Of a stretch of DNA of 27,851 nucleotides, positions 1-20,020 are shown piece by piece (within the stretch, counting starts at the first letter, position 1; every line of letters begins with the position of its first letter). The notes below the pieces were generated by a model, which did no database searches, was not told where the DNA came from, and saw only the letters and a list, made by a program, of their open reading frames with translations. The stretch comes from a phage. The stretch lies in the sequence record PZ583740.1; one strand, 5' to 3'. Made by a program: the position numbers and the translations under genes.

Positions 1-419
1 TAACCGACCTCACCGCCTCGGTTGAGCGCAGCAGCATCATTACCTACATAAAGTGGATATTGTCCTGTGGGGTCAGAGAAGCCTTCGTTGGGATTTGCTT
101 TTTGTCTTGAGGCTGAACCATACGTACCAATAACAAGCCCGTTGAGTTTCCACTTGTCTAAAAAGTGACCATATACCTGAGTCCCTGGCACCATACCGGT
201 CATTGCAGTTTGAATACCAGAAACTGATGCAGATGATGTTGGCATCAGTACAGACATCCATGGCAGGTCTTCAGTTCTGATACCTTTTACAGGCCCTTGT
301 GATTTCTCATATGGATGCATACCCCATACACGGACACGGACTCGGCCTTGTTGAAGTGGGTCCATTCGGTCTTCGACAACACCGACGAACCAACTTACAT
401 TATCTGACATATTAATCAT
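1..419 (-). CDS. 5: Baseplate hub / tail lysozyme gp5, N-terminal part only (gene continues past window start)
   Basis: Reverse-strand translation from ATG at 417-419 gives MINMSDNVSWFVGVVEDRMDP...GFSDPTGQYP, matching the gp5 N-terminal domain as I recall it; start overlaps gene 53 stop (ATGA). Not in ORF track because no stop lies inside the window. Confidence 0.8.
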   Translation of the reverse strand, partial: MINMSDNVSWFVGVVEDRMDPLQQGRVRVRVWGMHPYEKSQGPVKGIRTEDLPWMSVLMPTSSASVSGIQTAMTGMVPGTQVYGHFLDKWKLNGLVIGTYGSASRQKANPNEGFSDPTGQYPLYVGNDAAALNRGGEVG

Positions 420-1018
420 AATGACTTCTCCATCTCACGGATTAATGCCGAAATAAATGATTCGATATCATTAGGGTCGATTATCTTTATTTCTCGTTTA
501 TATTCATTTTTACGAATAGCATCTTCATAGATATCTACTGCAGCTAATGGACCTTCATATTGTGGGTACAATTTATTCTTATCACCTTTATCATACCAGG
601 TGTACGGATTATCAGGATAAGAAACAAGATTCCAGAATTTTTCACCATCTTCATTTACATGATAAAGAACCTGATTACCACCTATATTCGAATAGCGTTG
701 AATTGATGCCTGATACGATGATTCTTGTGAACATATCCAACCATAATACGGGTCATAGATATCATTAAGCATAAGGAGAACCCAATAGAGTTGAGTATTA
801 CCATAGAGCTGATATGCAAGTTCTTCAGGTCTTGGAGCTCCAGCGATGTAATATGTTTTCGGTGTATAATTAACCGCAACCTTATCAAAATAGGCACGAT
901 AGTTTCTGAAGATGTCAGTCATCGGGATGCTTAAGACGTCTTCTTTCGTTAATGATGCCGAGTTTTTTCTGATTGTTTTAGCATCATAATCAATTGGGTT
1001 AAAAAATGAAAAAAGCAT
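416..1018 (-). CDS. 53: Baseplate wedge protein gp53
   Basis: Track ORF 416..1048; product MLFSFFNPIDYDAKT...YPQYEGPLAAVD resembles T4 gp53. ATG at 1016-1018 is preceded by GGAGG; the track's longer ORF begins at a TTG. Confidence 0.8.
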   Translation of the reverse strand: MLFSFFNPIDYDAKTIRKNSASLTKEDVLSIPMTDIFRNYRAYFDKVAVNYTPKTYYIAGAPRPEELAYQLYGNTQLYWVLLMLNDIYDPYYGWICSQESSYQASIQRYSNIGGNQVLYHVNEDGEKFWNLVSYPDNPYTWYDKGDKNKLYPQYEGPLAAVDIYEDAIRKNEYKREIKIIDPNDIESFISALIREMEKSL

Positions 1019-1030
1019 AAAGCCTCCATT

Positions 1031-1038
1031 TATAAATA
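1031..1038 (+). promoter_or_regulatory. T4-type late promoter (TATAAATA) for gene 4
   Basis: Exact TATAAATA 28 nt upstream of the gene 4 ATG, followed by GGAGG RBS. Confidence 0.55.
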
Positions 1039-1066
1039 AGTATATCAATATTTATTAGGAGGCTAT

Positions 1067-1519
1067 ATGGCATACTCCGGGAAGTGGCAGCCAAAAAACG
1101 TTGCCAAGTACAAAGGAGACTGGAAGAAAATCACATACAGGTCAAATTGGGAAAAATTTGTATTTAATTGGTTAGATAATCATCCAGATGTGATACAATG
1201 GGGCTCTGAGACCGTAATTATTCCATATTTCAGTAATGCGGATGGTAAAAAACGCAGATATTACATGGATATGTGGGTGAAATTCTCAAATGGACAACAG
1301 TTTTTCTTTGAGGTCAAACCCAAAAAGGAAACAAGGCCGCCAGCAAAACCAGTCAATACGACCGCTGCAAGTAAGAAGAGGTTTATGAACGAAATGTACA
1401 CTTGGGCCGTTAACAAGGATAAGTGGAAAGCAGCGCAGGCCGTAGCCGATAAAATGGGCATCCAGTTTAGATTGATTACTGAAGATGCGCTTAGAAAAAT
1501 GGGATATAAGGGTTTATAA
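1067..1519 (+). CDS. 4: Head completion protein gp4
   Basis: 150 aa, MAYSGKWQPKNVAKYKGDWKKITYRSNWEKF..., length and sequence match T4 gp4; divergent from gene 53 as in T4. Confidence 0.85.
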   Translation: MAYSGKWQPKNVAKYKGDWKKITYRSNWEKFVFNWLDNHPDVIQWGSETVIIPYFSNADGKKRRYYMDMWVKFSNGQQFFFEVKPKKETRPPAKPVNTTAASKKRFMNEMYTWAVNKDKWKAAQAVADKMGIQFRLITEDALRKMGYKGL

Positions 1520-2247
1520 TGTACGATTGTTCAGATTTTAACATCACAAATGGCGAGATAGTGGGACAAGGCGATTTTAATAAATCAAAAACTTTGATAT
1601 TTGTAAAGTGCTTTATATGTGAAGAAACATGCAAATACAAAGCAACTGTTTTAAAGCATAAGTTAAAAACAAAAAGTTGGTGTTCTAATTGTAATTTAAA
1701 ACGTTCTTATGGTGAAAGCAAATTAATATCTGAATTAGATGCAATCACAAGAATAAATTCCGTGAATCCATTGTATAGTTTTGATAAATGGGATACCACA
1801 TATTCAACTTTTACAAAATCAAAAGCCTATATAAAGTGTTCTACATGTTCAACCAGTTGGATTACAAATCTAAACAACTTTACAACAAAAAACAAAGGAT
1901 GTCCAAACTGTTGTCACAAAGGATTTAACGCAAAGAAACCTGCTATTGTTTATGTTAATAAAATAGAATATCCGGGCGGAACTGCTTTAAAGTATGGTAT
2001 AACTTCCAATCATGATTTTAGATTGTGGCAGCAAAATCATTTTTCCAAATGCATTAGTTCCAAATTATATTATCGAGAATTTGAACTGGGTGCACAAGCC
2101 AAAATGTTAGAATCCGCAATATCTGTATTATATATAAAAGACAGAGGTTATTTGAATAAAGATATTATGGTCGATGGCTATACAGAAACCTTACCATACT
2201 ATTTAAAAAATGATTTGATTAATTTTATAGAAGGATGGAAAGGATGA
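1519..2247 (+). CDS. Cys-rich putative endonuclease: N-terminal zinc-ribbon pairs plus GIY-YIG-like C-terminal half
   Basis: 242 aa. Two CxxC...CxxC units ([13 protein letters not shown]; CSTCS..CPNCC). C-terminal [33 protein letters not shown] resembles the I-TevI GIY...YVGSAKDFEKRWKRHF core. Start overlaps gp4 stop (TAATG), stop overlaps gp2 start (ATGA). Confidence 0.45.
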
Positions 2248-3071
2248 GTATTTTTACATTTATCAATGAATCTGCAGATAAACCAGGTCCGAAACCCAGT
2301 AAATCAGAACAACAATGGGTTGAAATAGGGGTTGAATTTTATACAGCAAAAGAAAAGGGAATGACCTCGAAGAAGTTTGCTGAAGAGAAAGGAATCAACT
2401 ATTCGACCTTTACCAAAAGCATGTCAAGATATCATTCGAGAATTCAGACTGCTTATAAAGTATCCAAGCTCAAAAAGAAACCTGCCGGTAAACTTACGAA
2501 GGCTGAACGTCAGCTGATAATGGTGAATAGCTTTAGAAAGAGCATAAGAGATAAGATTGCTAACGAAGGCGCTGCAAGCAACACCAAATCTGCCAGATGG
2601 TTCGCTGAGACAATTAAGAAATCAGTTCGGGGCCACGTAACGGCTAAACCTCAACCGGGTAAGATTTATGCTTATATCTATGATGCAAAGCATAAGGATA
2701 CTCTTCCGTACTGGGACAAATATCCGTTAATCATTTATCTTGGGCTAGGTAAGCACAATTTGATGTATGGTTTGAACTTGCACTATATTCCACCGAAGGC
2801 ACGTCAAGAGTTCCTTGAGGAACTTCTTAAGCAATATGCCAATACTCCTACGATTACGAACAAGACTCATCTGAAGATTGATTGGTCAAAAGTGAAGGGA
2901 TTTAAAGGGGCTGACCAGATGATTAAAGCATATATACCTGGCAATATAAAAGGTACTATCACTGAAATCAAGCCCAGCGACTGGGCAAATGTGGTATTAC
3001 TCCCCCTTCAGCAGTTTTTTTCAAAAGGCAAAAGATTTTCTTCACAGAAAGTATGGAGAAATTCACTTTGA
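2244..3071 (+). CDS. 2: DNA end-protector protein gp2
   Basis: Position between genes 4 and 3 as in T4; about 275 aa from ATG at 2244 (AAGGA upstream). Sequence recall for gp2 is weak, so the call rests largely on synteny and size. Confidence 0.65.
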
Positions 3072-3727
3072 ATTATCAGTTTATATATTCATCGTTAATT
3101 GAAAGGGCCCGTAACAGGGTCCTGATTTCATATAAAGAATCTCATCACATCATTCCGAAATGTATGGGTGGTTCAAATGCTCCGGATAACTTAGTCGATT
3201 TGACTCCCGAGGAACATTATGTAGCCCATCAACTATTGGTTAAAATATATCCTACAAATCCAGGTTTAAGTTTTGCTGCCACATCTATGAGTCAGTCAAG
3301 CAAGTATTTGAAACGCAATAATAAATTATTTGGCTGGTTAAGACGCAGACACGCTGACAATATTTCTAAAAGCCAAACCGGTAAAGTTTACTTTAATAAT
3401 GGTGTCAAATCGATAAAACTATTTCCATGGGAAGATGTTCCGGATGGGTTTGTCAAAGGAAGACATTACAGCCCAACCAAGGGTACAAAACATTCTCGCA
3501 ATAATGGACATTTTAAAAATAAAGAGATTCAGGACGAATTGAGAAAGCGCCGGTGGGAAAAAGATAGGCAAGAAATGTGTAAAAACTTCGGAGTTGATAC
3601 CATCGAGCAAGCTCGAGAGTTGGTCCTAGCATATAAAAAGGAATTGCATCCTCGATACTGGGTAAAGCCAATGTTGGAACGTTATCCGTTTATGACTAAG
3701 CTAAGACTTAACACATTAATAAAATAA
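3053..3727 (+). CDS. HNH homing endonuclease (free-standing)
   Basis: 224 aa with HNH motif [29 protein letters not shown]; inserted between genes 2 and 3, overlapping the gp2 3' end by 19 nt. Confidence 0.8.
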
Positions 3728-3812
3728 TCTATTATCGGTCAGTGTTATTGGTAAGGACAAAAGGTCTAGAACCATTATAACACTGATTGTTTTAAAGCAA
3801 ACAAGGTGCACT

Positions 3813-4412
3813 ATGTCAGGTTTATATAATCAAACTAACACGACTAACTTTATATTAGAGGTGAGCGATTCAAACCTCACACAGACCTTTAAACTCAACG
3901 TTCAAGACGTTACCCTCCCAGGAGTTCACATTCCAGTGACGGATGTCCCTGGGGGAACACAAGGTATAAATCGCTCCAGTCTTCCTGGTAGTACAATAGA
4001 ATTCGACCCGCTGATTGTTAACTTTCTGTGTGACAAAGACCTAAGAGCGTGGCTTGACATCTATAAATGGATGCTCTCGCTTAACAACTACATCACACAC
4101 GAATCAAAAGCATGGAATCCGAAGGGTCGTCCCGAAGCGGTCACGCTTCACATCTTAGATAACAACAAGGACAAAATTGTCATGTCAATCCATTACTATG
4201 GAGCATGGCCGTCCGACCTGTCAGAGATTCAGTATTCATATAAAGAAGATTCTGACCCGGCTATCATTGCAACAGCAACTTTTAACTTTAAGTCTTTTGC
4301 TGTAGAAATTGATGGTATAATAATAGAAGGTAGACCACAGATTGATAGTAATGCAGCAATGCAACAGGAAATCAGGTCTAAGTCAATGCATCCATCTATG
4401 AGAAACGTATGA
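3813..4412 (+). CDS. 3: Tail completion / sheath stabilizer protein gp3 (assigned mainly by position)
   Basis: 199 aa ORF between genes 2 and 1, stop overlaps gene 1 start (ATGA); RBS AAGGTG upstream. Confidence 0.55.
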   Translation: MSGLYNQTNTTNFILEVSDSNLTQTFKLNVQDVTLPGVHIPVTDVPGGTQGINRSSLPGSTIEFDPLIVNFLCDKDLRAWLDIYKWMLSLNNYITHESKAWNPKGRPEAVTLHILDNNKDKIVMSIHYYGAWPSDLSEIQYSYKEDSDPAIIATATFNFKSFAVEIDGIIIEGRPQIDSNAAMQQEIRSKSMHPSMRNV

Positions 4413-5085
4413 AATTAATTGCGATTGTGGGTAAAAAACGCAGTGGTAAAGATACGACTGCTGATTATGTTATTAGTCAAAACGGAACAAAGTGGCAGCT
4501 TGCTGGTCCGATTAAAGAAGCGCTTTATAAAGCGTGGATTCGTCAAGACCTGCCACACAATTTGACCCTGGAAAATTTTGATGGACAAGGTTACGACCGT
4601 GAAAAAACCTTAATAATGAACAACACCGAAGCTTATATTCTTCTGGTTGATGCTCTTGAATGGTTGAAACAACAATACAATCTTGACCTTCCGAATCCAG
4701 ATATGGTTCGTAAAATCATTGAATTTCACACACTAAATAATGTTGAGCCCTGGACAGTTAGACGTTTCATGCAGACCCTTGGAACTGATATTGTTTGTAC
4801 AGAGTTCGACAGCATGTTTTGGATTAAAACTTTTGCATGCGACTATCTTGACAACCTCTATTCTGGATATAAATATTACGTTGTCCCAGATGTTCGTCAA
4901 AAGAATGAACTTGATTCGCTTCGGGCGATGGGTGCTACAATAATCTTTGTAGAACGCGATGAAGCAAATCATTCTACTGATACACACATTACGGAAGCTG
5001 GACTTCCACCACTAGCTAGTGACATTGTTATTAAAAACGATGGCACACTCGAAGAACTTTTTGATAAAATTAATAAGGTAATATA

Positions 5086-5086
<1 letters not shown>
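4409..5086 (+). CDS. 1: Deoxynucleoside monophosphate kinase gp1
   Basis: 225 aa with P-loop GKKRSGKDTTAD; MKLIAIVGKKRSGKDTTADYVIS...LAGPIKEAL matches T4 gp1. Confidence 0.85.
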
Positions 5087-5776
<690 letters not shown>

Positions 5777-5777
<1 letters not shown>

Positions 5778-5806
5778 TGTACAAATGAGTGTAGGTGCAG
5801 TATTAT
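5777..5806 (+). promoter_or_regulatory. Sigma70/T4-early-like promoter (GTGTAC, 18 nt spacer, TATTAT) overlapping a 7-bp-stem palindrome
   Basis: GTGTAC at 5777-5782, TATTAT at 5801-5806; inverted repeat GTGTAGG (5789-5795) / CCTACAC (5810-5816); GGAG RBS then ATG at 5838. Confidence 0.35.
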
Positions 5807-5837
5807 GTTCCTACACCAATGAACAAACGGAGTTAAT

Positions 5838-6170
5838 ATGAACATCAAAACTTACAACGAGTTTTTAGCCGAATCCGCCATCAATGAGACCAAATCAATT
5901 GATGATAGTGAAGGCTCTCTGAAATTTGGTTTAACCAAAAACGCAGATGGTGTTTTCTTTCAGATTGGTAATGAACGTTTTCAAACGTCCAAATATTCCA
6001 AAGCTGCAGTTGAAGCTGTCCTGAAATCTGGTGGCAAGTGGAAAGGCAAAGAAGGTACTAAAGAAATTGGTATCGCTGTTGACGGTGGTATGGCTTATTT
6101 TAAAATTGGCGATGAACAATTTATTATGTCTGCTCGCGGACGTAAAGAACTGGCAAAACTTTATAAATAA
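5838..6170 (+). CDS. Internal protein (IP)-like, capsid-targeted small protein A
   Basis: 110 aa; N-terminus MNIKTYNEFLAE-S resembles the T4 capsid-targeting sequence MKTYQEFIAE with an L-x-E prohead-protease site; GGAG RBS. Confidence 0.7.
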   Translation: MNIKTYNEFLAESAINETKSIDDSEGSLKFGLTKNADGVFFQIGNERFQTSKYSKAAVEAVLKSGGKWKGKEGTKEIGIAVDGGMAYFKIGDEQFIMSARGRKELAKLYK

Positions 6171-6178
6171 GGTTTCTT

Positions 6179-6451
6179 ATGAAAACTTTCAATGAATTTT
6201 TCAACGAGTCACAATTGAATGAAGAAGTAAAAATTAGTAAAGCAGTCAAATCTATGATTGACAATATCAATCACCTGTATAGCATTGACTTGACTGACCA
6301 TATAACAATTGGTAACAAACGCAACTTTTTCGCGTTTGACATTTCAGAACTTGACCAGAACCAAATTAATAACATTGAGCGTTTTGCCAATGACAAGGGT
6401 CTCCGCCATGAGACAGCTGGTTATAAAAAATATGCAATTTATCTTAAATAA
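6179..6451 (+). CDS. Internal protein (IP)-like, capsid-targeted small protein B
   Basis: 90 aa; N-terminus MKTFNEFFNE-S; tightly linked to ORF A via conserved junction AAATAAGGTTTCTTATGAAAAC. Confidence 0.65.
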   Translation: MKTFNEFFNESQLNEEVKISKAVKSMIDNINHLYSIDLTDHITIGNKRNFFAFDISELDQNQINNIERFANDKGLRHETAGYKKYAIYLK

Positions 6452-6459
6452 GGCTTCAA

Positions 6460-6702
6460 ATGAAAACTTATCAAACATTTATAACAGAATCTTCCCATAG
6501 TATGGAAGTTAAACTTGGTCAAGCCCTTGCTGAAGCAGAGCGCCTGTTTGCACGTATCAAAGAACTTGCCGATTCTGTAGATGCATCATCTTTTAAAGGC
6601 GACCAGGGTAAAGTTAAAGCTCTCCTTGCTCTTTGTTCAGACGCGGGTGAAATTGCTAAGAACGGCACCAAGATGAAAAAACGCCTAGAAGATTTAAAAT
6701 AA
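6460..6702 (+). CDS. Internal protein (IP)-like, capsid-targeted small protein C
   Basis: 80 aa; N-terminus MKTYQTFITE-S; junction AAATAAGGCTTCAAATGAAAAC. Confidence 0.65.
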   Translation: MKTYQTFITESSHSMEVKLGQALAEAERLFARIKELADSVDASSFKGDQGKVKALLALCSDAGEIAKNGTKMKKRLEDLK

Positions 6703-6732
6703 GTGTACATGATGGGATAACTGTAGTATGAT
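6703..6732 (+). promoter_or_regulatory. Sigma70/T4-early-like promoter (GTGTAC, 18 nt spacer, TATGAT) overlapping palindrome TGGGATAA/TTATCCCA
   Basis: GTGTAC 6703-6708, TATGAT 6727-6732; 8-bp inverted repeat 6713-6720 / 6732-6739. Confidence 0.35.
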
Positions 6733-6757
6733 TATCCCATCAACTACTGGAGACCAC

Positions 6758-7012
6758 ATGAAAACTTATCAAGAATTTATTACTGAATCTGCAAATGCAA
6801 AAGTTGAGTTTGCTTATGTTGGTTCGCCGCGTGGCAGTTTTTCCAATGAGGAATTCCGTCGTTCACTGGACAATTTCATGCAGTTAAGTGCTGAAGTATC
6901 GCATGATGGTCGTTATGACATCGTTACTATTAGCGGTTCTGAAGACCTTATCAAAAAGTGGTACAAGCAGAAAGATGTTGAGATGCGTTACTATCGTATC
7001 CCTAAAAAATAA
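6758..7012 (+). CDS. Internal protein (IP)-like, capsid-targeted small protein D
   Basis: Track ORF 6728..7012 starts at an upstream codon; ATG at 6758 has a GGAG RBS and gives MKTYQEFITE-S (84 aa). Confidence 0.65.
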   Translation: MKTYQEFITESANAKVEFAYVGSPRGSFSNEEFRRSLDNFMQLSAEVSHDGRYDIVTISGSEDLIKKWYKQKDVEMRYYRIPKK

Positions 7013-7041
7013 GTGTACTTTTAAATGGGATAACGTATAAT
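7013..7041 (+). promoter_or_regulatory. Sigma70/T4-early-like promoter (GTGTAC, 17 nt spacer, TATAAT) overlapping palindrome TGGGATAA/TTATCCCA
   Basis: GTGTAC 7013-7018, TATAAT 7036-7041; inverted repeat 7026-7033 / 7041-7048; about 80 percent identical to the unit at 6700-6760. Confidence 0.4.
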
Positions 7042-7070
7042 TATCCCATCAACTACTGAGGGCCAAAAAA

Positions 7071-7292
7071 ATGAAAACGTATCAAGAATTTATTAACGAA
7101 GCTAAAATGCATGACGAATTGCCGATTCAATCTAAAACTTTTGATGGTACACTGAAGGATTTTAAAAAGTTGCCAAATGATAAATTGGCAAAACTTACAG
7201 GTTCTGTATCTGAAACAGGTGGTAAGGTTACTTTCTCTGCCCGTGGTATTGTCAACCTTAAAAAACTTTTGAAAGCCGTTGGTGCTGAATAA
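7071..7292 (+). CDS. Internal protein (IP)-like, capsid-targeted small protein E
   Basis: 73 aa; N-terminus MKTYQEFINE-A; GAGGG RBS. Confidence 0.65.
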   Translation: MKTYQEFINEAKMHDELPIQSKTFDGTLKDFKKLPNDKLAKLTGSVSETGGKVTFSARGIVNLKKLLKAVGAE

Positions 7293-7350
7293 AACAGTTA
7301 CTGGTCTAGTATATCATAACCTAGACCTATCAAAAAGTGAGGAGAATAAA

Positions 7351-7536
7351 ATGAAACGTTGTGAATTAATTAGAAATGTTACTGCCTTTGTTGCTGTTAC
7401 CACTTTTGGTTTTAGCATGTTTGCTGGCTTTATGTTGAATATGCTTTCAACTTCTGAGAATATAATCTCTTTAGTAGTTGCATTTTTAATTGGTTCAATC
7501 TCTTTCGTTATGGATAAAATCTCTAAAGGTGAGTAA
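7351..7536 (+). CDS. Small predicted membrane protein (two hydrophobic helices), function unknown
   Basis: ATG at 7351 preceded by strong GAGGAG RBS; 61 aa with hydrophobic stretches [23 protein letters not shown] and [17 protein letters not shown]. Track ORF 7279..7536 starts at an upstream TTG. Confidence 0.5.
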
Positions 7537-7550
7537 AATGTATAAAGTGT

Positions 7551-8519
7551 ATGCGGATTATCAGAAAGATTCGCCTGCAAGGCTTCACCAGCGGTGAATG
7601 GGTAGCTCGCGAGAAGATTCATGGTACCAACTTTTCATTAATCATTGAACAAGACAATGTGACATGTGCGAAACGCACTGGACCTATCCTGCCTGCAGAA
7701 GATTTCTATGGTTATGAAATTGTATTAAAGAATTATGCTGATTCTATTAAATCTGTGCAGAAACTTTTGCAGGATATTAATTACCAGGCATACCAGATTT
7801 ATGGTGAGTTTGCCGGGGCAGGTATCCAGAAGAATGTGGATTACGGTGATAAAGATTTTTATGTATTTGATATCCGCGTTACTAAAGAAGATGGTTTTGA
7901 ATCCGTCCTGACTGACACCTTGATGGAAGCATTCTGTATTATCCATAAGTTTAAGGTTGCACCGCGCCTGGCTACAGGTAGTTTTGAAGAATTAATTAAG
8001 CTCCCTAATGACCTGGATTCTGTTGTCCCTGATTACAATTTTACAGTGGATAACGCGGGTTTGACTACAGCAAATACCACTGATTTTGTTGCAAAGGTGG
8101 AAGGTAAAGTATTCACTGCCGAAGGATTTGTATTAAAACCTGATGTTCCTGCATGGTTACCTAACGGCGAGCGTGTAGCGATTAAATGTAAGAACTCTAA
8201 ATTCAGTGAAAAGAAAAAGTCTGATAAGCCTATTAAGGCTGCAGTGGTTCTGAGCCAAAATGATATGGATTTACTGTGGAATTTCACTGATTATGTGACT
8301 GTTAACCGTATCAACAATGTTATCAGTAAAATTGGGGAAGTAACACCGAAGGATTTTGGAAAGGTAATGGGGTTAACAGTCCAAGATATTCTGGAAGAAG
8401 CGGGGCGCGAAGGTCTTGAATTGTCCCTGACGGAAAATCCTGTTGAAGTTAAAAAGCAACTTATTGTAAATGTAAGAGAAACATTAAGACATGTTTGGAT
8501 TGCATTAGTTAGTGAATAA
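7551..8519 (+). CDS. rnlB: RNA ligase 2 (Rnl2 / gp24.1)
   Basis: 322 aa with nucleotidyltransferase motif [20 protein letters not shown] and strong overall similarity to T4 Rnl2; true 5' end uncertain (ATG with good RBS at 7538 is in another frame). Confidence 0.85.
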
Positions 8520-8547
8520 AAATAAAGGGCCTTGCGGCCCTTTTTTA
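8520..8547. terminator. Bidirectional rho-independent terminator between rnlB and gene 24
   Basis: Hairpin GGGCC-TTGC-GGCCC (8527-8540) flanked by an A-run upstream and T6 downstream; lies between convergent stops. Confidence 0.7.
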
Positions 8548-9825
8548 ATTTATTTCAGTCAGAACTTTAGGAAGTTTCACACCAAGCAGTACAGACATAT
8601 CTGAACGTCCTGCCATCAAATCCATATTTGTTGCATCAATAATACGAGCTTGTTTATCATCAGCAGTCACTGTATAAGGGTTAGCTGCTAACGCATAACG
8701 AACCATTAATGCAATAGACGGCTGCAAACTTTCTGGGTCAACGACAACTTTGAACGAACCAACATGTTCAGGGTCTTCCAGGTCAAGACCTTCGGTATAA
8801 GGTGCATAAAACAGTGAACCCACCATCTCTTTCCCACCGAAATCTTCTTTAACACCAACAGTCACATAATCAAATGGAGTGTTCGTATCGCAATAAAGCG
8901 GTAGACCATTATCCAAGAAACCATACGCATTATCGGAGAGATATTTCTCATCTTGTGGACGATGCTTCAACCAACCAGAACCAGCCAAAACTGCAGCTAC
9001 ACGCGTAGAAGCAACAACGTATGTTGCGGTGTAAGAAGTTGCCCGCTGAATATGGGAGACCATCTCACACATGATTTCGTACAACTTGCGTGAAGCTTCC
9101 GGAGAGTTGGTATAAGACAGGTCAATCAGGCCATCATCACAGAGTCCAGCAACTTTATAACGCTTGGAAACTGTTACCAGGGATTGCAGGATATCTTTGT
9201 TAATTTCATCAGCCATTTCGGTAGCTAACAGGTCTTCCAGGAAGTTTGGAGCGTCAAAACCATTTGCTTCCAGGTCCTGGGCCAGTTCCACTGTAACAGT
9301 GCTTTTCAGCTTACGAGATTTAACCGGAGCATTCCATTTGTTAACCAAAAATTTAGCTTCGGCAATTTCGACTTCCTGTGGTCCTTCAAAACGTTCGGTG
9401 ATTGCAGCTTCGGACATAATACGGATGGTCAATTTAACCATCGCTTCTTGAAGCTGGTCATACTCATCGCCCGTTGCTCCAGCAAATGGAGTTGCTACCA
9501 GCGCTTTATAAACTACATTTTCAAACTGGAACAAATCGTCTTTAGCATAAACTGCGCCAGCAACAAAAACCGGAATGGTCGCACGGTCTTTTGCTGATAC
9601 TGCACCAGAATAGGTTGCACCAGTCTGGAAAGATAATTCATCTTTCTGAGTCAGGTATTTAAGACCGTATAATGCCGCCAGTGGCTGGGATGTGCGCTGT
9701 TGTGCTACTAAATCGGTGTAAATCAGTTTAGTTGTAGCTCTGGTTAAAGCTACTAGATTCGGTCGACCAATCGAAGAACTTGTGGTCGTGGTCGACTCTT
9801 TTAAGAGTTCGTTAATTTTAGCCAT
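8545..9825 (-). CDS. 24: Head vertex protein gp24
   Basis: 426 aa, MAKINELLKESTTTTSSSIGRPNLVALTRATTKLIYTDLVAQQRTSQPLAALYG...; gp23-paralog fold; matches T4 gp24. Confidence 0.85.
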   Translation of the reverse strand: MAKINELLKESTTTTSSSIGRPNLVALTRATTKLIYTDLVAQQRTSQPLAALYGLKYLTQKDELSFQTGATYSGAVSAKDRATIPVFVAGAVYAKDDLFQFENVVYKALVATPFAGATGDEYDQLQEAMVKLTIRIMSEAAITERFEGPQEVEIAEAKFLVNKWNAPVKSRKLKSTVTVELAQDLEANGFDAPNFLEDLLATEMADEINKDILQSLVTVSKRYKVAGLCDDGLIDLSYTNSPEASRKLYEIMCEMVSHIQRATSYTATYVVASTRVAAVLAGSGWLKHRPQDEKYLSDNAYGFLDNGLPLYCDTNTPFDYVTVGVKEDFGGKEMVGSLFYAPYTEGLDLEDPEHVGSFKVVVDPESLQPSIALMVRYALAANPYTVTADDKQARIIDATNMDLMAGRSDMSVLLGVKLPKVLTEIN

Positions 9826-9850
9826 TGCTATTTCCTTTTGTGATATACTT

Positions 9851-9858
9851 TATTTATA
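9851..9858 (-). promoter_or_regulatory. T4-type late promoter (TATAAATA on minus strand) for gene 24
   Basis: Reverse complement of 9851-9858 is TATAAATA, 25 nt upstream of the gp24 ATG. Confidence 0.55.
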
Positions 9859-9864
9859 AAAGTT

Positions 9865-9894
9865 GTTTACAACCAGATTAAGATAAGACATAAT
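9865..9894 (+). promoter_or_regulatory. T4-early-like promoter (GTTTAC, 18 nt spacer, CATAAT) for the plus-strand 93-aa ORF
   Basis: GTTTAC at 9865-9870 and CATAAT at 9889-9894; AT-rich upstream. Confidence 0.4.
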
Positions 9895-9935
9895 GATTCC
9901 ATACTGAGTTAACAAACAAAACCTGGAGTTTAAAA

Positions 9936-10217
9936 ATGAACAAAGCAACTTTCCTTCTGAACACCTTTAAAAATCTGGAAATTGAAGTTATTGCCTTGGT
10001 CAACAAATACCCAAATGGTGTTAATGGTAATGCTCTGAACAAACTAGTTAAAAAATATGAAAACTTAGCATATGACACTGATTTCTGGTGGAATGGTAAT
10101 TATTCTACTCACACTAAAGATAAAAATGGTAACTGGTTGAAACTTCAAGAAAACAATGTTAACTTCAGAGACCTTATCAAGCGCCGGGTAGAAGTTCATT
10201 TAAATGGTATGGTATGA
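9936..10217 (+). CDS. Hypothetical protein, opposite-strand gene between head genes 24 and 23
   Basis: 93 aa ORF with GGAG RBS 8 nt upstream of ATG, own promoter-like element and a downstream hairpin terminator; no recognisable motif. Confidence 0.5.
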   Translation: MNKATFLLNTFKNLEIEVIALVNKYPNGVNGNALNKLVKKYENLAYDTDFWWNGNYSTHTKDKNGNWLKLQENNVNFRDLIKRRVEVHLNGMV

Positions 10218-10224
10218 AAACAAG

Positions 10225-10252
10225 AAAGGGACCTCAAGGGTCCCTTTTTATT
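10225..10252. terminator. Bidirectional rho-independent terminator after gene 23 and after the 93-aa ORF
   Basis: Hairpin GGGACC-TCAAG-GGTCCC (10228-10244) followed by T-run on plus strand and T-rich tract on minus strand. Confidence 0.7.
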
Positions 10253-10267
10253 TAACTTAATCTAGGA

Positions 10268-11827
10268 TTAAATTCCTTTAACATATACGCGGCGGAAGTA
10301 ACCGTTCAAGCCAAGGCTGTTAACGATGTCCGGCATGCCGTTCTGAATGCGCTTGGTCGGAGCCTGAGCAGCAGGGTCAGCAAACGGGTTGATACCGATA
10401 CCGTAACGGGTTTTGAAGCCCATAACCGGCTGGAAGTTTTTCGGGTCAGAACCACGCAGCGGGGTCAGTGCAACATATGGTGCGTAGTAGATACCAGCAT
10501 CCATTTCGTTAGCGCCTTTGTAACCGATGGTGAAGTAATCTGCACGAGCATACTGGTCGATATAGACACGGTATTTGCCACCCAGAACACCAGCGAACAC
10601 AGCTTTAGTGGTGTCAACGTTGAAACCTTTACCCAGACCCTGAGCAGCATAACTAACAGAAGTATCAACAGCAGCCAGCACGTTAACTACGTTACGGGAA
10701 GCGATGATGAAGTTACCTGCACCACGACCGGTCTGACGAGCGATTTCAGCGGCTTCTTTATCAATCTGGAACAGTAAAGCTTTGAAGCTTTCACCAGCCC
10801 AACGAGCACCACGGATATCAATCGGGTCCTGGAAGTCAAACACACCAGCTTTAGCGCCAACGGTGTTGGTCATACCAGATTTACCAACCTGAGCGGAGTA
10901 GTTAATCCAATCGATAACTTCACGGTTGATTTCCAGCATAATTTCGGTAGCCAGAATACCACTCAATTCGGCATCAGCATCCATACCATGAACAGCGCGC
11001 AGGTCCTGTGCCAGTTCGATGGAGTAGCTTGCTTTCAGCTGACGGGATTTAGCTTCGATAACTTGTTTATCGATACGGAAGCCCATTTCGTTCCACGGGT
11101 TATCAGTAGAACCGTTAAAGCCTTCCTGCAATTCGGCGATAGAAGTAGCCATACCTTCAGCGATTTCTGCCAACTTACCAGCTTCGAGCAGTTTGGTAAC
11201 TTCAGCGTCAAGTTTAGCAGCATCAGTAGCACCAGCATCAACGGTTACAGCTTCAACAGCCTGGTAGTGTGCAGAACCGGTTGCTTCGAAGAAGTGAGAA
11301 TAAATTTTACCAACTTCCAGAACTTTGCTTGCAGCCAGTGCTTCAAAAGTCTGAGCAGCGCCCTGACCAGAGAACATAGCGTTCGGAGCATACATCGGAT
11401 GGAAAGCTTCTTTAGCACCAGCAGCGACAGGGTCTTTACCGTATACTGCACGCAGTGCAAATACCTGGCCAGTCGGGTTGTTCAGAGGCTGTACGCCACA
11501 AATATCAAACGCAATCAGATGCGGGATAGCACGACGAACCATACCCATAACTGCCGGCCCAATCTGAGTTACTGCACCAGAGGTCTGGCCAGCAGCGATA
11601 TTGGTAGCATCATAACCATGGTCACCACCGATTTCAGCTTCGGTCAGGAAAGAACCAAATGCTTCGGAGATTTTTTCGTCACGGTATTCAGGAGCGGTCA
11701 GAATATCTTGTTCCTGGTTTTCAAAGATTTTAGCGATGATAGCTTGTTTAGAAGCACCAACGATTTCAGGAAGAGCTTCGTTTTCCAGCAGAGCGGACCA
11801 TTTTTGAACTAATGCATTCTTTTTCAT
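10268..11827 (-). CDS. 23: Major capsid protein gp23
   Basis: 519 aa; near-identical stretches to T4 gp23 (AIIAKIFENQE, GAVTQIGPAVMGMVRRAIP, DPKNFQPVMGFKTRYGIGINPF, YFRRVYVKGI). Confidence 0.95.
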   Translation of the reverse strand: MKKNALVQKWSALLENEALPEIVGASKQAIIAKIFENQEQDILTAPEYRDEKISEAFGSFLTEAEIGGDHGYDATNIAAGQTSGAVTQIGPAVMGMVRRAIPHLIAFDICGVQPLNNPTGQVFALRAVYGKDPVAAGAKEAFHPMYAPNAMFSGQGAAQTFEALAASKVLEVGKIYSHFFEATGSAHYQAVEAVTVDAGATDAAKLDAEVTKLLEAGKLAEIAEGMATSIAELQEGFNGSTDNPWNEMGFRIDKQVIEAKSRQLKASYSIELAQDLRAVHGMDADAELSGILATEIMLEINREVIDWINYSAQVGKSGMTNTVGAKAGVFDFQDPIDIRGARWAGESFKALLFQIDKEAAEIARQTGRGAGNFIIASRNVVNVLAAVDTSVSYAAQGLGKGFNVDTTKAVFAGVLGGKYRVYIDQYARADYFTIGYKGANEMDAGIYYAPYVALTPLRGSDPKNFQPVMGFKTRYGIGINPFADPAAQAPTKRIQNGMPDIVNSLGLNGYFRRVYVKGI

Positions 11828-11848
11828 GTGTTGTATAACCTTATTAAA

Positions 11849-12667
11849 TTAAGAAATTCGTGATGCTGCGAGAGCAGACAAGTCCGCGAAGGACAGGGTA
11901 GGCTTGGCGCCTTTTTCTTCAACTGCTTCTGAAATGTAATTCAGTGCCGCAGCATCGTCTACATTTTTATTTATAGCGGCTTCGGTGATTGGTTTGTCGG
12001 TGGGTTCTACCTGACCTTTAACCATTTCAACGATAGCGCCAATTTTGGTACCGAATGCATCAGAGTATTCCATGCCTTCTACCAGAGAACCAACTTTTTC
12101 TTTCTGAGATTCAGTCAGGTCTTTAGTTGCTTCAGTCAACGCAACTTCACGTTGGACATAATTGATATAAGCATCACGCTTAGAAACTTCTTCGAACAGG
12201 TTAGCGGTTTCTTCTTTCTGTTCAGCCAGTTCTTCCTGCATTTCTGCAACAACATCGACAGATTCTTCCGGAACAACAACGTTGTGCTCAACGAACAGTT
12301 CTTTCATGCCGGTGAACATGGATTCGAACAGGTCAGCTTTAATGCCACGGTCGACAGCCAGTTTATTTTCAGCAAGCCATTCTTTAGCAACGTGGTCCAG
12401 GAATTTAGCTGCAGATTCTTTCAGTTTTTTCTCTGCTTTTTCGTCGGATTCTTCTTTATTCTTTTCGACTTCTTCTTCAGCTTTTTCAGCGATGGCGTGA
12501 ATGTGAGATTCTGCCAGTTTGATGGCGTGTTGCTTGACGGTAGCTTCGAATACAGTGCCGAAGGTAGCTTTCGCTTCCGGGGACAAATTAACTGATTCGA
12601 AAATACTATCGAGAGCAACGGAAGCATCGATATTCTGAGCTTCAGAAATGAGTTGTTCTTTAAGCAT
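11849..12667 (-). CDS. 22: Prohead core scaffold protein gp22
   Basis: 272 aa, highly acidic coiled-coil-like protein between genes 21 and 23, as in T4. Confidence 0.8.
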   Translation of the reverse strand: MLKEQLISEAQNIDASVALDSIFESVNLSPEAKATFGTVFEATVKQHAIKLAESHIHAIAEKAEEEVEKNKEESDEKAEKKLKESAAKFLDHVAKEWLAENKLAVDRGIKADLFESMFTGMKELFVEHNVVVPEESVDVVAEMQEELAEQKEETANLFEEVSKRDAYINYVQREVALTEATKDLTESQKEKVGSLVEGMEYSDAFGTKIGAIVEMVKGQVEPTDKPITEAAINKNVDDAAALNYISEAVEEKGAKPTLSFADLSALAASRIS

Positions 12668-12696
12668 TTTGTAGTCCTGTTGTTAAGATATACATT

Positions 12697-12704
12697 TATT
12701 TATA
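12697..12704 (-). promoter_or_regulatory. T4-type late promoter (TATAAATA on minus strand) for gene 22
   Basis: Reverse complement of 12697-12704 is TATAAATA, 29 nt upstream of the gp22 ATG; overlaps gp21 stop codon. Confidence 0.5.
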
Positions 12705-13338
12705 ACGTCTTTAAAGCCTCTGCGAGAGCCATAAAGGCGTCATCGGCACTGGTATCGGCAACAGCCGTTTGTGATTCTGTAATCTGCTTTGGTTTGACCC
12801 AAGCGTCCGGAGCACTTGGCCCCCATACTGCGTCTACTCCAACCGTCAATTTAAAACCTTCATTAACGATGTTATAACCTTTTGCTGATTTAGTCAGGGA
12901 ACCAAGTCCACGACTAGATACGCCAGGAATCCAACCTGCTCTTATATTCGCAGCAAGTTTATCACCTGGACCATGGTCGCCTTCTATAATACGTGCGCGG
13001 CCATATACATCATTCCCTTTCCACCACATTTCCTCGATAATAATTGCTGCCTGCATAGGGTCAACGTTTGCACGAGGTGGATGGTTTAATTCTCCAAGAG
13101 ACTGCTTGGTTTCAACCTGTTCGACGATATAGTCCGCAACAGCTTTTTCCAAAATATGTTTAGGATAAAGTCGTTTATTACGGTTAACAACTTCAGCTTG
13201 TAGGAAAATACCTTCAATATAAAGTCCTGGCTTTAAACCGCTGCTGGAACCATCATGAGATTCCAACATCGGTACACCATCTTTAATTTCGCCCGGTTGA
13301 CCCCAGTGTTCGATTAGTAACTCTGGTTTCTGTTCCAT
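12700..13338 (-). CDS. 21: Prohead protease gp21
   Basis: 212 aa, [21 protein letters not shown]...; same length as T4 gp21 and matching sequence. Confidence 0.85.
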   Translation of the reverse strand: MEQKPELLIEHWGQPGEIKDGVPMLESHDGSSSGLKPGLYIEGIFLQAEVVNRNKRLYPKHILEKAVADYIVEQVETKQSLGELNHPPRANVDPMQAAIIIEEMWWKGNDVYGRARIIEGDHGPGDKLAANIRAGWIPGVSSRGLGSLTKSAKGYNIVNEGFKLTVGVDAVWGPSAPDAWVKPKQITESQTAVADTSADDAFMALAEALKTL

Positions 13339-13766
13339 TAATCAAGTCCGAATGCTTTACGCTTAGCTCGAGCTTTTTTGCGCTTGCGCTCTGCTCTGAT
13401 TTGCGTAGATGGGTTTGCTCTTTTCGTTTTAGTAGCCAGACGGGCAATTTGACGACGTTTAGCTTTAGAAAGACCGGTTGTTTGGAAAGCATTACGCTTA
13501 CGAGTAGCTAGGTCTTTTGTGCGGGTTAACTCACCGCGAGACGATACATGTTTAACGATAAATTCGTTAAGCTGAACACCTTCATTCAGAGCGCCGATAA
13601 CCGTTGCTTTTTCGTATTCACCGGCTGCAAACATGTTTTCTACAATAATATTTATATCGTCTTTTTCTAAGGCTTCGGATAATGAATCAAATTGTCCCTG
13701 AGCTTCTTCGGAAACACTTTCAATGTTTTCAAGAGTTAATTCGTAATCATCAGGGATAATAAACAT
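13338..13766 (-). CDS. 68: Prohead core protein gp68
   Basis: 142 aa with basic C-terminal tail; position between 67 and 21 as in T4. Confidence 0.7.
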
Positions 13767-13993
13767 TATTCATCGTCCTCATCGTCAGATTCTTTTTTGT
13801 CTTTCTTTTCTGCTTTGCCGTCGTCCTTGCCTTCATCTTCTTTAGGCTCTTCGCCTTCAATCATGATGGAACGTGCAATTTCAATCTTACGTTCTTCAAT
13901 CAAACTACCGCATACTGGGCCAATGTTTTCAGCAAAATATTTGCGAACGGCTACGAGGTCGTTTGATTTAATGGCTTCAAATAAATCATCCAT
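13766..13993 (-). CDS. 67: Prohead core protein gp67
   Basis: 75 aa with acidic C-terminus; position immediately downstream of gene 20 as in T4. Confidence 0.7.
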
Positions 13994-15567
13994 TAGAAAT
14001 CCTCTTCTTCTTCTTCAGGGTTTTGGAAACGAGCCTCTTTGGACTCCAATTCAATTTGCTTAGCTTCTTGATTAATTTCTTCATCAGACATCTGGAGGAA
14101 ATCCTTCATAGCCGTTTGATGTGAAATATATTTACCGATAAACGGTTCAGCCATCGTTAGCATATTGATTCTGCGTTCCATGATTTCTGCATCTTTCATT
14201 TCGGTGAAATAGCTATCACGGTTGAACGTAACTTTAATATTATTTAGTTCCTTGTCCCATTCCTCTTCTGAAATAATTTTTTTCAGGATAAGGTTTGTTT
14301 TAAGCGGGTCGAGGAAAACTTCTTCAAATTTATTCTGTAGCTGTCGAATCCATTTAGAGAAATTCAATTCATCGCGAGTAATTGTCGCACCTGCATCAAA
14401 CATAACGCCGCTGTTCTGGTCGTTAGGGATACGAGATAATGGAATTCGGAGCGCCTGATATAGGTTGTTCTTAAACCAGCGAACATCGTCCATATCCGAC
14501 ATGCCTTGTGCACCCGGGAGTGTATCAACTTCAGTGACTGCTTTACCATCACGACGTTGCAACCAATAGTCTTCTGTCATTGACATGTTGTGCTGTTGGT
14601 TTTTGATTTTACCCGTAGTTGCATCATATACGACACGGTTTTTCATCGTGTTCATAATATGTTGCATGTGTGCTGCTGCTTTACGAGACGGCATATTCCC
14701 GGTATCGATATAAAAGACTCGGCGGTCTGGGGCACGAGTTATACGATAAATGACTAAAGCATCTTCTAATAGTTTTAATTGGTTTGCAGGTTTAATTGCT
14801 CGTTGCAAGTATCCGATGATATTCTTGCCACAACAATCGAGTAATCCAGAATGCGCATATACAATCGCCGCACGAGGAATTTTTATTTTAGTACCTGCTT
14901 CATATATACGACCATCGGCACAATAACTTTCATGGCCAGTATCGTATACAAAATATTCTCTGTAACCGTCGACAATTTTTGTACCGTTTTCCATGCGTGT
15001 AACGATTTCACGGATGAACTGGATTTGTCTTGGGTCAAGGCGACGAAGTTCTTGAACTCCATCTTTAAGTTTTGATGGGTTGATAATTTTGTGGAAGAAA
15101 ATTCGAGAATCCACATACCAACGTTTAAAGTGGTCAGAACCTTTGCGCTCGAAATTAAGGAGGTTATTGACTTCCGAGAATTCTTCGAGGATTCGGTCTT
15201 TAATTTTCTGACTAAATTCGGTAGCATCAAGGTTAAGAGCTACAACATCTTTACCGTCTTCAAAAACGATAGCATCAGACACAATTTCTTGCACTGCGTT
15301 ATCAACTTCATAATTATTTAGTAAGTTGCGGTAGGTGTCAATTAATTCCCTGGTATTTTTTACTTCAGGTTCATTGCTCCCGAACATCTGTTGCATCAAT
15401 GCATTATACGGGACGTTTTGTTCTTGTGACTCAATTTCACGAGCCCCATCATCAAACTTCGGCCCGGTCATTGACTCTAAATTATTTTTTTCTTGTTGCT
15501 TATATTCTTGTTCATCTTCTTTAGCCCAAGGCTTAAGAAAATTTAGTATTGTGTTAAAACCTGCCAT
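13993..15567 (-). CDS. 20: Portal vertex protein gp20
   Basis: 524 aa; long stretches matching T4 gp20 ([58 protein letters not shown]). Confidence 0.9.
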
Positions 15568-15595
15568 TAGAGTCTCCGAAGTTTGTCTATTACTT

Positions 15596-15603
15596 TATTT
15601 ATA
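15596..15603 (-). promoter_or_regulatory. T4-type late promoter (TATAAATA on minus strand) for gene 20
   Basis: Reverse complement of 15596-15603 is TATAAATA, 28 nt upstream of the gp20 ATG; overlaps the stop of the upstream endonuclease gene. Confidence 0.5.
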
Positions 15604-16186
15604 TTGGAGTTCGGGTACAATTTTTATGATATCGAACAATCGCAGAGCGAGTGGACTCCGTACCACATACGGGACAAATTGCACGAGGTAAATTTAATGA
15701 TTTTCCTTTATTTGGATGTTCTTTACCAAACATAGGATTATTTTCACCGCTCATTGCTTTAGAATGGTCTGGTCGTTTTCTTCCTGATAATGCTTTGGAT
15801 TGTCTTGGACGTTTAACACCAGTATTGCTTTTATTTCTTTTATCGATAGATTCCTGTGTCCAAACCTTACCTTTCATCGACATACCAAAAAATCCATTTG
15901 GTTGAGCTAATGACATATTTATATAGTTTGGTGATTTAACCACATTGTATAATTTTTGTACTCGTAATTCTTCTTCAATAGCTTCTTCGTGCGTATTAAA
16001 TGTTTTTAAGATACGAGTTTTAAACAACTGAGGATTATCACGTAATTCATTTTTCCAAATGGTTTTATATTTTTTAGAACCAACGGAACCATGATAATTT
16101 TCAGTTATTCGTTGAATAGTTGTCGAGCCGATGTAACGACGGGGAAGGAGATTCCCCGTATATACTGTAAGATAAGTGCAATACAT
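15599..16186 (-). CDS. GIY-YIG homing endonuclease (Seg-like)
   Basis: 195 aa; N-terminal YLTVYTGNLLPRRYIGST (GIY...YIG), NUMOD3-like repeats (SGRKRPDHSKAMSGENNPMFGK), C-terminal CPVCG...HKNC zinc finger; GGAG RBS. Confidence 0.8.
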   Translation of the reverse strand: MYCTYLTVYTGNLLPRRYIGSTTIQRITENYHGSVGSKKYKTIWKNELRDNPQLFKTRILKTFNTHEEAIEEELRVQKLYNVVKSPNYINMSLAQPNGFFGMSMKGKVWTQESIDKRNKSNTGVKRPRQSKALSGRKRPDHSKAMSGENNPMFGKEHPNKGKSLNLPRAICPVCGTESTRSAIVRYHKNCTRTPI

Positions 16187-16232
16187 TCAAATTTCTCCAC
16201 TTCATTGTTTGAATGTATTTATTATGTCACAA

Positions 16233-16598
16233 TTATTCCCACCAGTCAATTGCGAACGTCGCTTCGAACGTCTCAATCTCATTATTGGAGTCCCAATCCA
16301 TCTGGACTTCCCCAACGTTGGTTGGCCACATGCCGGTAATAACAACTTCTTTCGTAACGGTCTTGCCATCACGATGGAACTGGCGGACAGTAGCGGTTTT
16401 CTTATAATCAGCAGGAGCTGCACCGGTGATTTCGTTAGTCATACCGTGACACAGATTTTGCCAATCAACAATTGCTTGACGAACTTTATGAGCATCGTCG
16501 TTATAAATCGTAATAGTCCAGTCATCAAATGTACGGTCACCCGCCACGTTGATTTTACGGTTCATGTAACCGACCGGAACTTTTTCTACAATGCCGAT
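16233..16598 (-). pseudogene. 19: Tail tube protein gp19, 5'-truncated fragment (about 42 N-terminal codons missing)
   Basis: In-frame region ...IGIVEKVPVGYMNRKINVAGDRTFDDWT...NEIETFEATFAIDWWE matches T4 gp19 residues ~43-163; an in-frame TAA at 16599-16601 and the gp11 stop at 16636 leave no room for the N-terminus. Confidence 0.6.
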
Positions 16599-16635
16599 TT
16601 ATCGCTAATGTGTTTTAGCGTGTTAGTCGTTGTCA

Positions 16636-17301
16636 TTACGATACTCGCTTATAATGGTAAAGTGAAATTGCGCCATTTGCTGTGCCACCTGATAATGTCT
16701 GGGTTGAAGTTCCAAGATATTCCCATGAACCATAACCACCGCGCGGTTGCTGTGTAATAGTCTGGCTAAGCGTACAACCATATTGAGTGAAAGGTACAAA
16801 ATTATGGTTTTGGTAGTCGTTATATGTAATATTTAATATAGACTGGTCCACACTATCAATTGCAGAGCTTGACACAATTAAACTATCAGCAACAGCCGTC
16901 AGCAAAGCATCGTTAACCTTGGAAGCAACTAATACAGCCGAATCCCCGACAATAACCTCAACTGGAATACCAAAAATGAAAAATAAAACAGTATCACCAA
17001 CCCCAGCACCAGAAATAGAACCGGTGAATTTAATTTTATCCGACTGGCTGATTGCTGCCGGAGAAAGGTTATTTGTATTAGTAATTACACTACCAACTGG
17101 AAGCTCGTATCGAAATGCGATATCATCTATTGCGCTCTGAACTGTTGGGTAAAAAATACCTTCGGTTGTCTGTGTTGCGGATGGGCCGCCGATTGCTCGT
17201 TGACCCATAACAGCCGTAATATTTTTTGATGTATTTTGAAATTCTAAGCAACTAGCAAGGCGGGAAATTACTCCAGCCTTTTTATTCGTTAATGTTTTCA
17301 T
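16636..17301 (-). CDS. 11: Baseplate wedge / short-tail-fibre attachment protein gp11
   Basis: 221 aa, M..NKKAGVISRLA...YHYKRVS matches T4 gp11 start and end; start overlaps gp10 stop. Confidence 0.8.
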   Translation of the reverse strand: MKTLTNKKAGVISRLASCLEFQNTSKNITAVMGQRAIGGPSATQTTEGIFYPTVQSAIDDIAFRYELPVGSVITNTNNLSPAAISQSDKIKFTGSISGAGVGDTVLFFIFGIPVEVIVGDSAVLVASKVNDALLTAVADSLIVSSSAIDSVDQSILNITYNDYQNHNFVPFTQYGCTLSQTITQQPRGGYGSWEYLGTSTQTLSGGTANGAISLYHYKRVS

Positions 17302-19981: not shown

Positions 19982-20008
19982 AGGTAAGCCTCGTTATTGA
20001 TATAGCTA

Positions 20009-20016: not shown

Positions 20017-20020
20017 GAAT

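Follow-up and report, generated by a model that had tools for sequence, protein, structure and literature searches.

The internal proteins (IPs) of T-even phages form a diverse set of defence proteins that have only a capsid-targeting sequence (CTS) in common (PMC3012670), and those of T4, Ip1, Ip2 and Ip3, each inhibit a distinct GmrSD system (PMC12373910). The present analysis concerns five consecutive small genes, here designated IPa to IPe, that lie at 5838-7292 on the + strand of a 27,851-nucleotide (nt) window of phage DNA (record PZ583740.1), in whose numbering all coordinates are given unless a locus of another record is named. With a probability of about 0.75, this array is read as the ipI-type hyperplastic locus of the genus Gaprivervirus, comprising five ip genes whose products would be packaged by means of a CTS, co-injected with the DNA and probably directed against host defences.

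Two bodies of earlier work frame the comparison. For T4 IPIII, PMC9026906 reports from truncation and amber-suppression work that the first 10 residues suffice as a CTS, that targeting depends on residues 4 and 7 (for which it summarises Mullaney & Black 1996), and that processing depends on residues 8 and 10. In the T4 record, both IPII and IPIII begin with MKTYQEFIAE followed by A, and IPI, which starts MKTFKEF, has a 19-residue leader. At the DNA level, the PeSL elements of T4-type phages (Arbiol 2010; Comeau 2014) have the T4/PST consensus TTTACW-N17-TAYWAT (PMC4122927).

An initial annotation of the window had described five consecutive small open reading frames (ORFs) of 110, 90, 80, 84 and 73 amino acids (aa), and their coordinates, lengths and common orientation were all verified, as follows (pI, isoelectric point).

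5838-6170, + strand: IPa, 110 aa; leader MNIKTYNEFLAE, first mature residue S; mature body of about 98 aa, pI 9.3
6179-6451, + strand: IPb, 90 aa; leader MKTFNEFFNE, then S; Ip9 orthologue
6460-6702, + strand: IPc, 80 aa; leader MKTYQTFITE, then S; Ip5 family
6758-7012, + strand: IPd, 84 aa; leader MKTYQEFITE, then S; divergent Ip6 family
7071-7292, + strand: IPe, 73 aa; leader MKTYQEFINE, then A; family of internal virion proteins in PHROG

A T4-type N-terminal leader followed by S or A was found in all five ORFs, and its proposed likeness to the T4 CTS is borne out by the IPII and IPIII termini quoted above. The motif KT[YFW]xxF[ILFVM]xE has exactly five matches in the six-frame translation of the 27.8-kb window, all of them in these ORFs, against a mean of 0.005 matches per mononucleotide shuffle of the window (200 shuffles). 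Over leader codons 2-11 the mean pairwise identity among the five ORFs is 67% at the amino-acid and 72% at the nucleotide level, and it drops sharply at the predicted cleavage site, to 11% and 36% over the ten codons that follow. K2, T3, F7 and E10 are invariant, and the leader peptide itself is under selection, since 23 of the 56 differing codon pairs are synonymous. At the positions singled out for IPIII, residue 4 is Y, F, Y, Y and Y from IPa to IPe, residue 7 is F throughout, Glu10 of the L/I-x-E site of the prohead protease gp21 is present in all five leaders, and residue 8 is L, I, I and I in IPa, IPc, IPd and IPe and F in IPb. By the published criteria, as far as residues can tell, the leader is a bona fide CTS. 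The term "paralogs" used in the initial annotation thus holds for the leaders and fails for the bodies, each of which belongs to a different PHROG family; as had been proposed, the bodies are unrelated downstream of the leader, with no significant pairwise BLASTP match (best E 0.22).

The start codons of two of these genes seem to be mis-set in public records. IPd has an alternative ATG at 6728, giving the 94-aa product annotated in RefSeq for phage RZ (4428-4712 of its extracted locus), which begins within the upstream hairpin (window 6728-6757), and IPa is annotated as 121 aa in VR26 (locus 2504-2869) and SP18 (locus 1092-1457). The shorter starts are preferred in both cases; each has a GGAG Shine-Dalgarno sequence and places the CTS at or near the N-terminus, that of IPd (6758, 84 aa) placing it exactly there.

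Locus identity and family membership converge on the same interpretation. Region 5300-7600 shares 98.5% of its sequence identity with Escherichia phage vB_EcoM_RZ (RZ; Gaprivervirus, Tevenvirinae), in whose RefSeq annotation ORFs 2-5 are internal head or virion proteins and ORF1 is hypothetical, and the same five genes occur in GenBank at 98-100% protein identity. VR26 uses the names ip9 and ip5 for the genes homologous to IPb and IPc, and has an ip6 gene at the place of IPd. The array lies between two genes that define the position of T4 ipI.

5322-5777, + strand: gene 57B, encoding the anti-CBASS nuclease Acb1 (Pfam Acb1, E 1.7e-59); left boundary of the ip locus
7351-7536, + strand: trna.4, encoding a 61-aa membrane protein (phrog_1692, E 1.8e-33), so named in VR26 and T4; right boundary

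IPb belongs to phrog_7673, internal head protein (E 2.5e-56), and is 79% identical to RB15 Ip9; IPc to phrog_3499, internal head protein (E 6.6e-41); IPd to phrog_8111, internal virion protein (E 1.9e-13), being about 44% identical to T6 Ip6 and, in its body alone, 33% identical to VR26 Ip6 (E 1e-8); and IPe to phrog_8765, internal virion protein (E 1.3e-20). IPa falls in phrog_3966, labelled "unknown function", and bears no Ip name in the records examined. Four of the five bodies are therefore in families named internal head or virion protein. The proposal that these are candidate internal proteins accordingly gains support from the annotation of near-identical phages, the ipI position, the PHROG names and the literature.

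The comparison with T4 can be drawn more closely. Array and T4 have in common the kind of CTS, the locus, the promoter/hairpin cassettes that flank it and the gp21/gp22 machinery. Unlike T4, which has one gene at the ipI locus, the window has five, and unlike Ip1-Ip3, for which specific GmrSD targets are established, the array encodes bodies that are not homologous to T4 IPI*, IPII or IPIII: in a comparison with the T4 record only the leaders align. The closer likeness is to Ip4-Ip10 of T-even phages, in that IPb resembles Ip9, IPc Ip5 and IPd Ip6, within a polymorphic ip locus in which only the leader is common; the departures from that series are that IPd is a divergent subtype and IPa lacks an Ip name. 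The two components of the head machinery were both located in the window.

12700-13338, - strand: gp21 prohead protease (Pfam Peptidase_S77, E 1.3e-101), presumed to cleave off the leaders
11849-12667, - strand: gp22 scaffolding core protein, by synteny with the "head scaffolding protein" of RZ; presumed docking partner of the CTS

The initial annotation had correctly placed gp21 at these coordinates. Its nearness to the array is nevertheless an artefact, because the window is a mosaic (see below); in the colinear relative RZ the two are about 32 kb apart.

The array is partitioned by three PeSL-like cassettes, and a further hairpin closes it on the right.

5776-5836, + strand: cassette 1, TGTACA-17-TATTAT; hairpin -16.3 kcal/mol (z -3.0); starts at the 57B stop codon and is followed by a GGAG Shine-Dalgarno sequence
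6700-6757, + strand: cassette 2, TGTACA-17-TATGAT; hairpin -17.3 kcal/mol (z -2.6); starts at the IPc stop codon
7010-7070, + strand: cassette 3, GTGTAC-17-TATAAT; hairpin -9.8 kcal/mol, with the -10 element in its loop
7293-7350, + strand: spacer with hairpin (-9.5 kcal/mol) and Shine-Dalgarno sequence before trna.4; right recombination boundary of the IPe cassette

Each of the three cassettes starts exactly at a stop codon and consists of GTGTAC, a 17-nt spacer and a -10-like hexamer carried in the hairpin loop. Cassettes 2 and 3 are direct repeats of each other (D5, D9), and an AACTACTGRRG Shine-Dalgarno region follows both. All align with, and are homologous to, the two cassettes that flank T4 ipI, whose hairpins fold just as well (-17.4 and -17.9 kcal/mol); between copies, in the window and in T4 alike, the stem sequences vary and the pairing is kept. 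IPa, IPb and IPc have no cassette between them, being separated by 8-nt spacers (TAAGGyTTCnnATG). The T4 late-promoter motif occurs 10 times in the window, compared with 2.4 occurrences expected, and one of these lies 10 nt upstream of the IPb start codon.

6162-6169, + strand: T4 late-promoter motif TATAAATA

Like PeSL elements, the cassettes combine an early-promoter-like element with a stem-loop at gene boundaries in a hyperplastic region, and indel breakpoints between close relatives lie in or beside them. They differ in their -35 element, which is (G)TGTAC(A/T) and not TTTACW, and in one -10 hexamer (TATGAT) that is off consensus; their promoter activity is predicted. A further difference is that the leader codons constitute a second recombination substrate in the array. 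The IP gene sets of six Gaprivervirus loci that were compared differ, the variants comprising Ip6 where the window has IPd, a 92-aa IP, a 99-aa ORF starting MQTFHEFLVE, and the presence or absence of IPe, which is missing from the VR26, UPEC07, UPEC01, SP18 and EAWsc9 loci. Homology breakpoints were mapped to 6473, which is within the IPc leader and 14 nt from its start; to 6804, immediately past the IPd leader; to 7076 and 7095, both at the start of IPe; and to 7326, where homology with relatives is regained. Because breakpoints fall at leader codons and cassettes, both are recombination substrates, and recombination at them explains why close relatives carry different IP sets.

Across phage records, the five families differ in their spread and conservation. 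IPa was found in 56 phage records, covering Gaprivervirus and relatives of 48-63% identity in T4-like phages that infect Edwardsiella, Citrobacter, Serratia, Pectobacterium, Salmonella and Erwinia; IPb occurs in 194 records and IPc in 497. IPd, in 246 records, is at least 90% identical in only 15 and below 60% in 231, and IPe, in 108 records, is at least 99% identical in only five; the naming of IPe is inconsistent among records ("Ip9" in IME08). Within Gaprivervirus, IPa is at least 98% identical in 34 records and IPb at least 95% in 34 records. The IPa homologue of T4-like phages from Citrobacter and Salmonella adjoins the endolysin gene, at a T4 ipII/ipIII-type locus and not beside 57B, so that the IPa family appears to move between two ip loci.

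The bodies themselves offer few clues to activity. None of the five proteins had an above-threshold match in Pfam or NCBIfam, PDB sequence searches (five with single sequences, one with a profile) returned nothing meaningful for any body, and the AlphaFold2 model of IPb (pLDDT 78) has a generic alpha/beta fold with uninformative structure matches. Two candidate relationships were rejected: that of IPe to DUF7412, with E 0.0024 over residues 1-34 only, is below the Pfam cut-off, and an 81-residue alignment of IPa with T4 IPIII (E 4.6e-6) is driven by the leaders and lost on their removal (E 0.063).

IPa is the most informative of the five. Relatives were sought in phage records, by a word-indexed protein search and in IMG/VR, and the CTS is kept in all 11 homologues, from several phage genera, with 33 invariant columns. 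Homology between the two halves of the protein (hhalign probability 95%, E 3.9e-8) indicates a tandem duplication. An AlphaFold2 model of moderate confidence (mean pLDDT 76.7 from 12 sequences; 82-89 in the body) has two beta-beta-beta-beta-alpha units that form one domain, and an independent BFVD model of the PEi26 orthologue superposes at TM 0.77. On these models the body is predicted to adopt a Whirly/PUR-like fold, resembling MRP1/MRP2, the plant Whirly proteins PBF-2/StWhy2, Pur-alpha and SsgA-like proteins. With sequence identity of only 8-13%, this is a resemblance of fold and not membership: for the PUR, Whirly and SsgA families there was no Pfam match at E<=0.1 and no PDB match by phmmer or profile search. 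The predicted fold is found mostly in nucleic-acid-binding proteins, yet it is no guarantee that IPa binds nucleic acid; SsgB is not known to be a nucleic-acid binder.

If the T4 precedent for packaging, cleavage, injection and anti-defence activity is extended to this locus, each product would be made with an N-terminal CTS (consensus MKTYQEFIxE) that docks the protein on the gp22 scaffolding core during prohead assembly. Cleavage by gp21 after Glu10 (Glu12 in IPa) would then free small, mostly basic mature proteins of 63-98 aa, which would stay in the head with the DNA and be ejected alongside it into the cell, where they could therefore act before any phage gene is expressed. Their most likely task, by analogy with T4 Ip1, Ip2 and Ip3, would be the disarming of host defences against incoming DNA. 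The array as a whole is assembled and reshuffled by recombination on leader codons and promoter/hairpin cassettes.

Several observations weigh against this interpretation. In the one published target screen of ip4-10, whose names include Ip5, Ip6 and Ip9, none of eight GmrSD systems was reproducibly inhibited (PMC12373910, Supplementary Fig. 9), and in the scans made here no body resembles a known anti-defence protein in sequence or fold. According to two papers, Gaprivervirus is without hydroxymethylcytosine (hmC) synthase and known glycosyltransferases; with the hmC pathway reportedly missing, extrapolation from GmrS/GmrD is weak, and GmrSD may not be the target. A search of the literature turned up no virion proteome of any Gaprivervirus; packaging and cleavage are accordingly argued from T4. 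Finally, two leaders depart from the pattern. IPb has F8, not I or L, at a processing position, and IPa has two extra residues before the CTS (MNI-KTY in the window, MSV-KTY in SP18) that are absent from orthologues of other genera, which start MKTY.

These two leaders are the basis of an account in which the array is heterogeneous, with IPc, IPd and IPe fully functional and IPb and IPa targeted to the head yet unprocessed, cut elsewhere or decaying. The FFNE-S junction of IPb differs from that of Ip9 orthologues outside Gaprivervirus, all of which have I at position 8 and keep MKTYQEFI, and IPb offers a second L-N-E site at residues 13-15, followed by E and ending five residues past the leader; the L at position 7 of VR26 Ip9 and the extended leader of IPa fit the same account. 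Such heterogeneity is nonetheless doubtful, with a slim chance of being correct, as the bodies of IPa and IPb are intact and highly conserved within Gaprivervirus (the 34 records each given above), and T4 IPI is packaged despite its F at position 4 and its atypical 19-residue leader. As a separate observation, Gaprivervirus Ip9 leaders diverge from the consensus at experimentally important positions, the VR26 leader (locus 2878-2907; its window counterpart is at 6179-6208) combining the change at targeting position 7 with the departure at position 8.

The basicity of four of the five mature bodies (pI 8.8-9.8) invites a different explanation, namely that all five proteins are packaged as generic basic cargo that neutralises DNA charge and helps the DNA to be packaged or ejected, without acting on a specific host target; the locus would then vary because constraint is relaxed and not because of an arms race. 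In T4, DNA phosphates are contacted by lysines of the internal proteins, which may make packaging faster (PMC3012670), the fold predicted for IPa would suit such a role, and ip4-10 are without an identified target. Even so, each of the three T4 IPs proved to inhibit GmrSD specifically, IPb (pI 6.8) lacks the basic character of the others, and the body families are conserved across genera (33 invariant columns in IPa; 84% mean column identity in the Ip9 family), which favours a folded, selected function over mere charge and makes generic cargo quite unlikely. A very improbable alternative is that the shared N-terminus is only a translation-initiation and recombination cassette and that the proteins are early accessory products, neither packaged nor injected. 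Leaders do stand directly downstream of conserved promoter/hairpin/Shine-Dalgarno cassettes, and recombination breakpoints lie inside leader codons, so that homogenisation at the DNA level adds to leader similarity. Against its being the whole explanation stand the peptide-level conservation described above (synonymous differences and four invariant residues), the retention of the leader by IPa, IPb and IPc with no cassette between them and by orthologues in distant genera, and the coincidence of the conserved residues with those that direct targeting and cleavage of T4 IPIII (PMC9026906). A homologue of the Ip9 body in a Kagunavirus siphophage has no leader, as would be predicted for a tag confined to T4-type heads.

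The reading of the array as packaged, injected and probably anti-defence proteins can also be extended in a more specific direction, in which IPa represents an unrecognised packaged and injected family of Whirly/PUR-like fold that binds single-stranded nucleic acid as the DNA enters the cell and, at the same time, the five-IP arsenal of Gaprivervirus is aimed at defences other than glucosyl-hmC-specific GmrSD. This joint proposal is tentative and unlikely. If it were true, IPa may shield the incoming DNA end or sequester a nucleic-acid trigger of defence, a mode that would differ from that of Ip1, which binds a restriction enzyme.

Further observations concern the surroundings and the origin of the genes. 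With Acb1 immediately upstream, the array belongs to a small group of neighbouring counter-defence genes, as it does in T4; in several RefSeq records 57B/Acb1 still carries the label "RNA ligase" or "hypothetical". In UPEC01 (locus 1761-2060) and EAWsc9 (locus 1763-2062), the 99-aa ORF with the start MQTFHEFLVE, followed by N, lies between Ip9 and the next IP; judged by that start it is probably another internal protein with a variant CTS, and the label "homing endonuclease" that it bears in EAWsc9 looks wrong. The leaderless homologue of the IPb body, in Kagunavirus siphophage BCH953P1 (locus 2537-2773), has 43% identity and is apparently frameshifted, and in Agtrevirus SW16-7 (Ackermannviridae) an 849-aa protein that lacks any Pfam domain (locus 191-2740) ends in ~75 residues that weakly match the same body (31% identity, E 1e-4). 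There are thus hints, from sequence similarity, that IP bodies may be recruited from a wider phage gene pool. Moreover, Ip7 of Escherichia phage OLB35 has only its C-terminal ~35 residues in common with Ip9 (80% identity) and a different N-terminal part, so IP bodies can themselves be mosaic.

The window is not colinear with any relative and resolves into three RZ-like blocks.

1-7564: block 1, corresponding to RZ 86795 to 79891
7565-16595: block 2, corresponding to RZ 118722 to 110266
16596-27851: block 3, corresponding to RZ 98473 to 87883

The joins at 7564/7565 and 16595/16596 are blunt, have no microhomology and truncate trna.3/rnlB and gp19/gp12; the IP array lies wholly within block 1 and is unaffected. 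Both ends of the window fall in gp5, 1087 nt from each other, as though the three blocks formed a circle of about 28.9 kb. The arrangement is more plausibly explained by a chimeric assembly or a spliced window than by a viable rearranged phage. Four further ORFs have the look of the mobile endonucleases that typically move through T4-like genomes.

3053-3727, + strand: 224-aa ORF between genes 2 and 3; no Pfam match, no alignment to RZ
26116-26793, - strand: 225-aa GIY-YIG/SegE-like homing endonuclease between gp5.4 and gp6; no alignment to RZ
15599-16186, - strand: 195-aa ORF between genes 19 and 20; no Pfam match, no alignment to RZ
1519-2247, + strand: 242-aa ORF between genes 4 and 2; present in RZ as "endonuclease", with a sub-threshold match to a treble-clef zinc finger

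Much of this picture is established T4 biology: the hypervariable ip locus, the non-homologous bodies behind a common leader and the proposed anti-defence role are a rediscovery. The variable locus with its shared leader reportedly goes back to Repoila et al. 1994 (EMBO J 13:4181), to whom later papers attribute it. What is added here is modest, namely the recognition that IPa (phrog_3966) represents a family of IPs, the Whirly/PUR-like repeat fold predicted for it, and a map of cassettes and breakpoints. The practical value of the array lies in a parts list of five compact proteins that are probably delivered ahead of the phage genome, and these are reasonable candidates for anti-defence screens, especially in the genus Gaprivervirus, given the question posed by its DNA modification.

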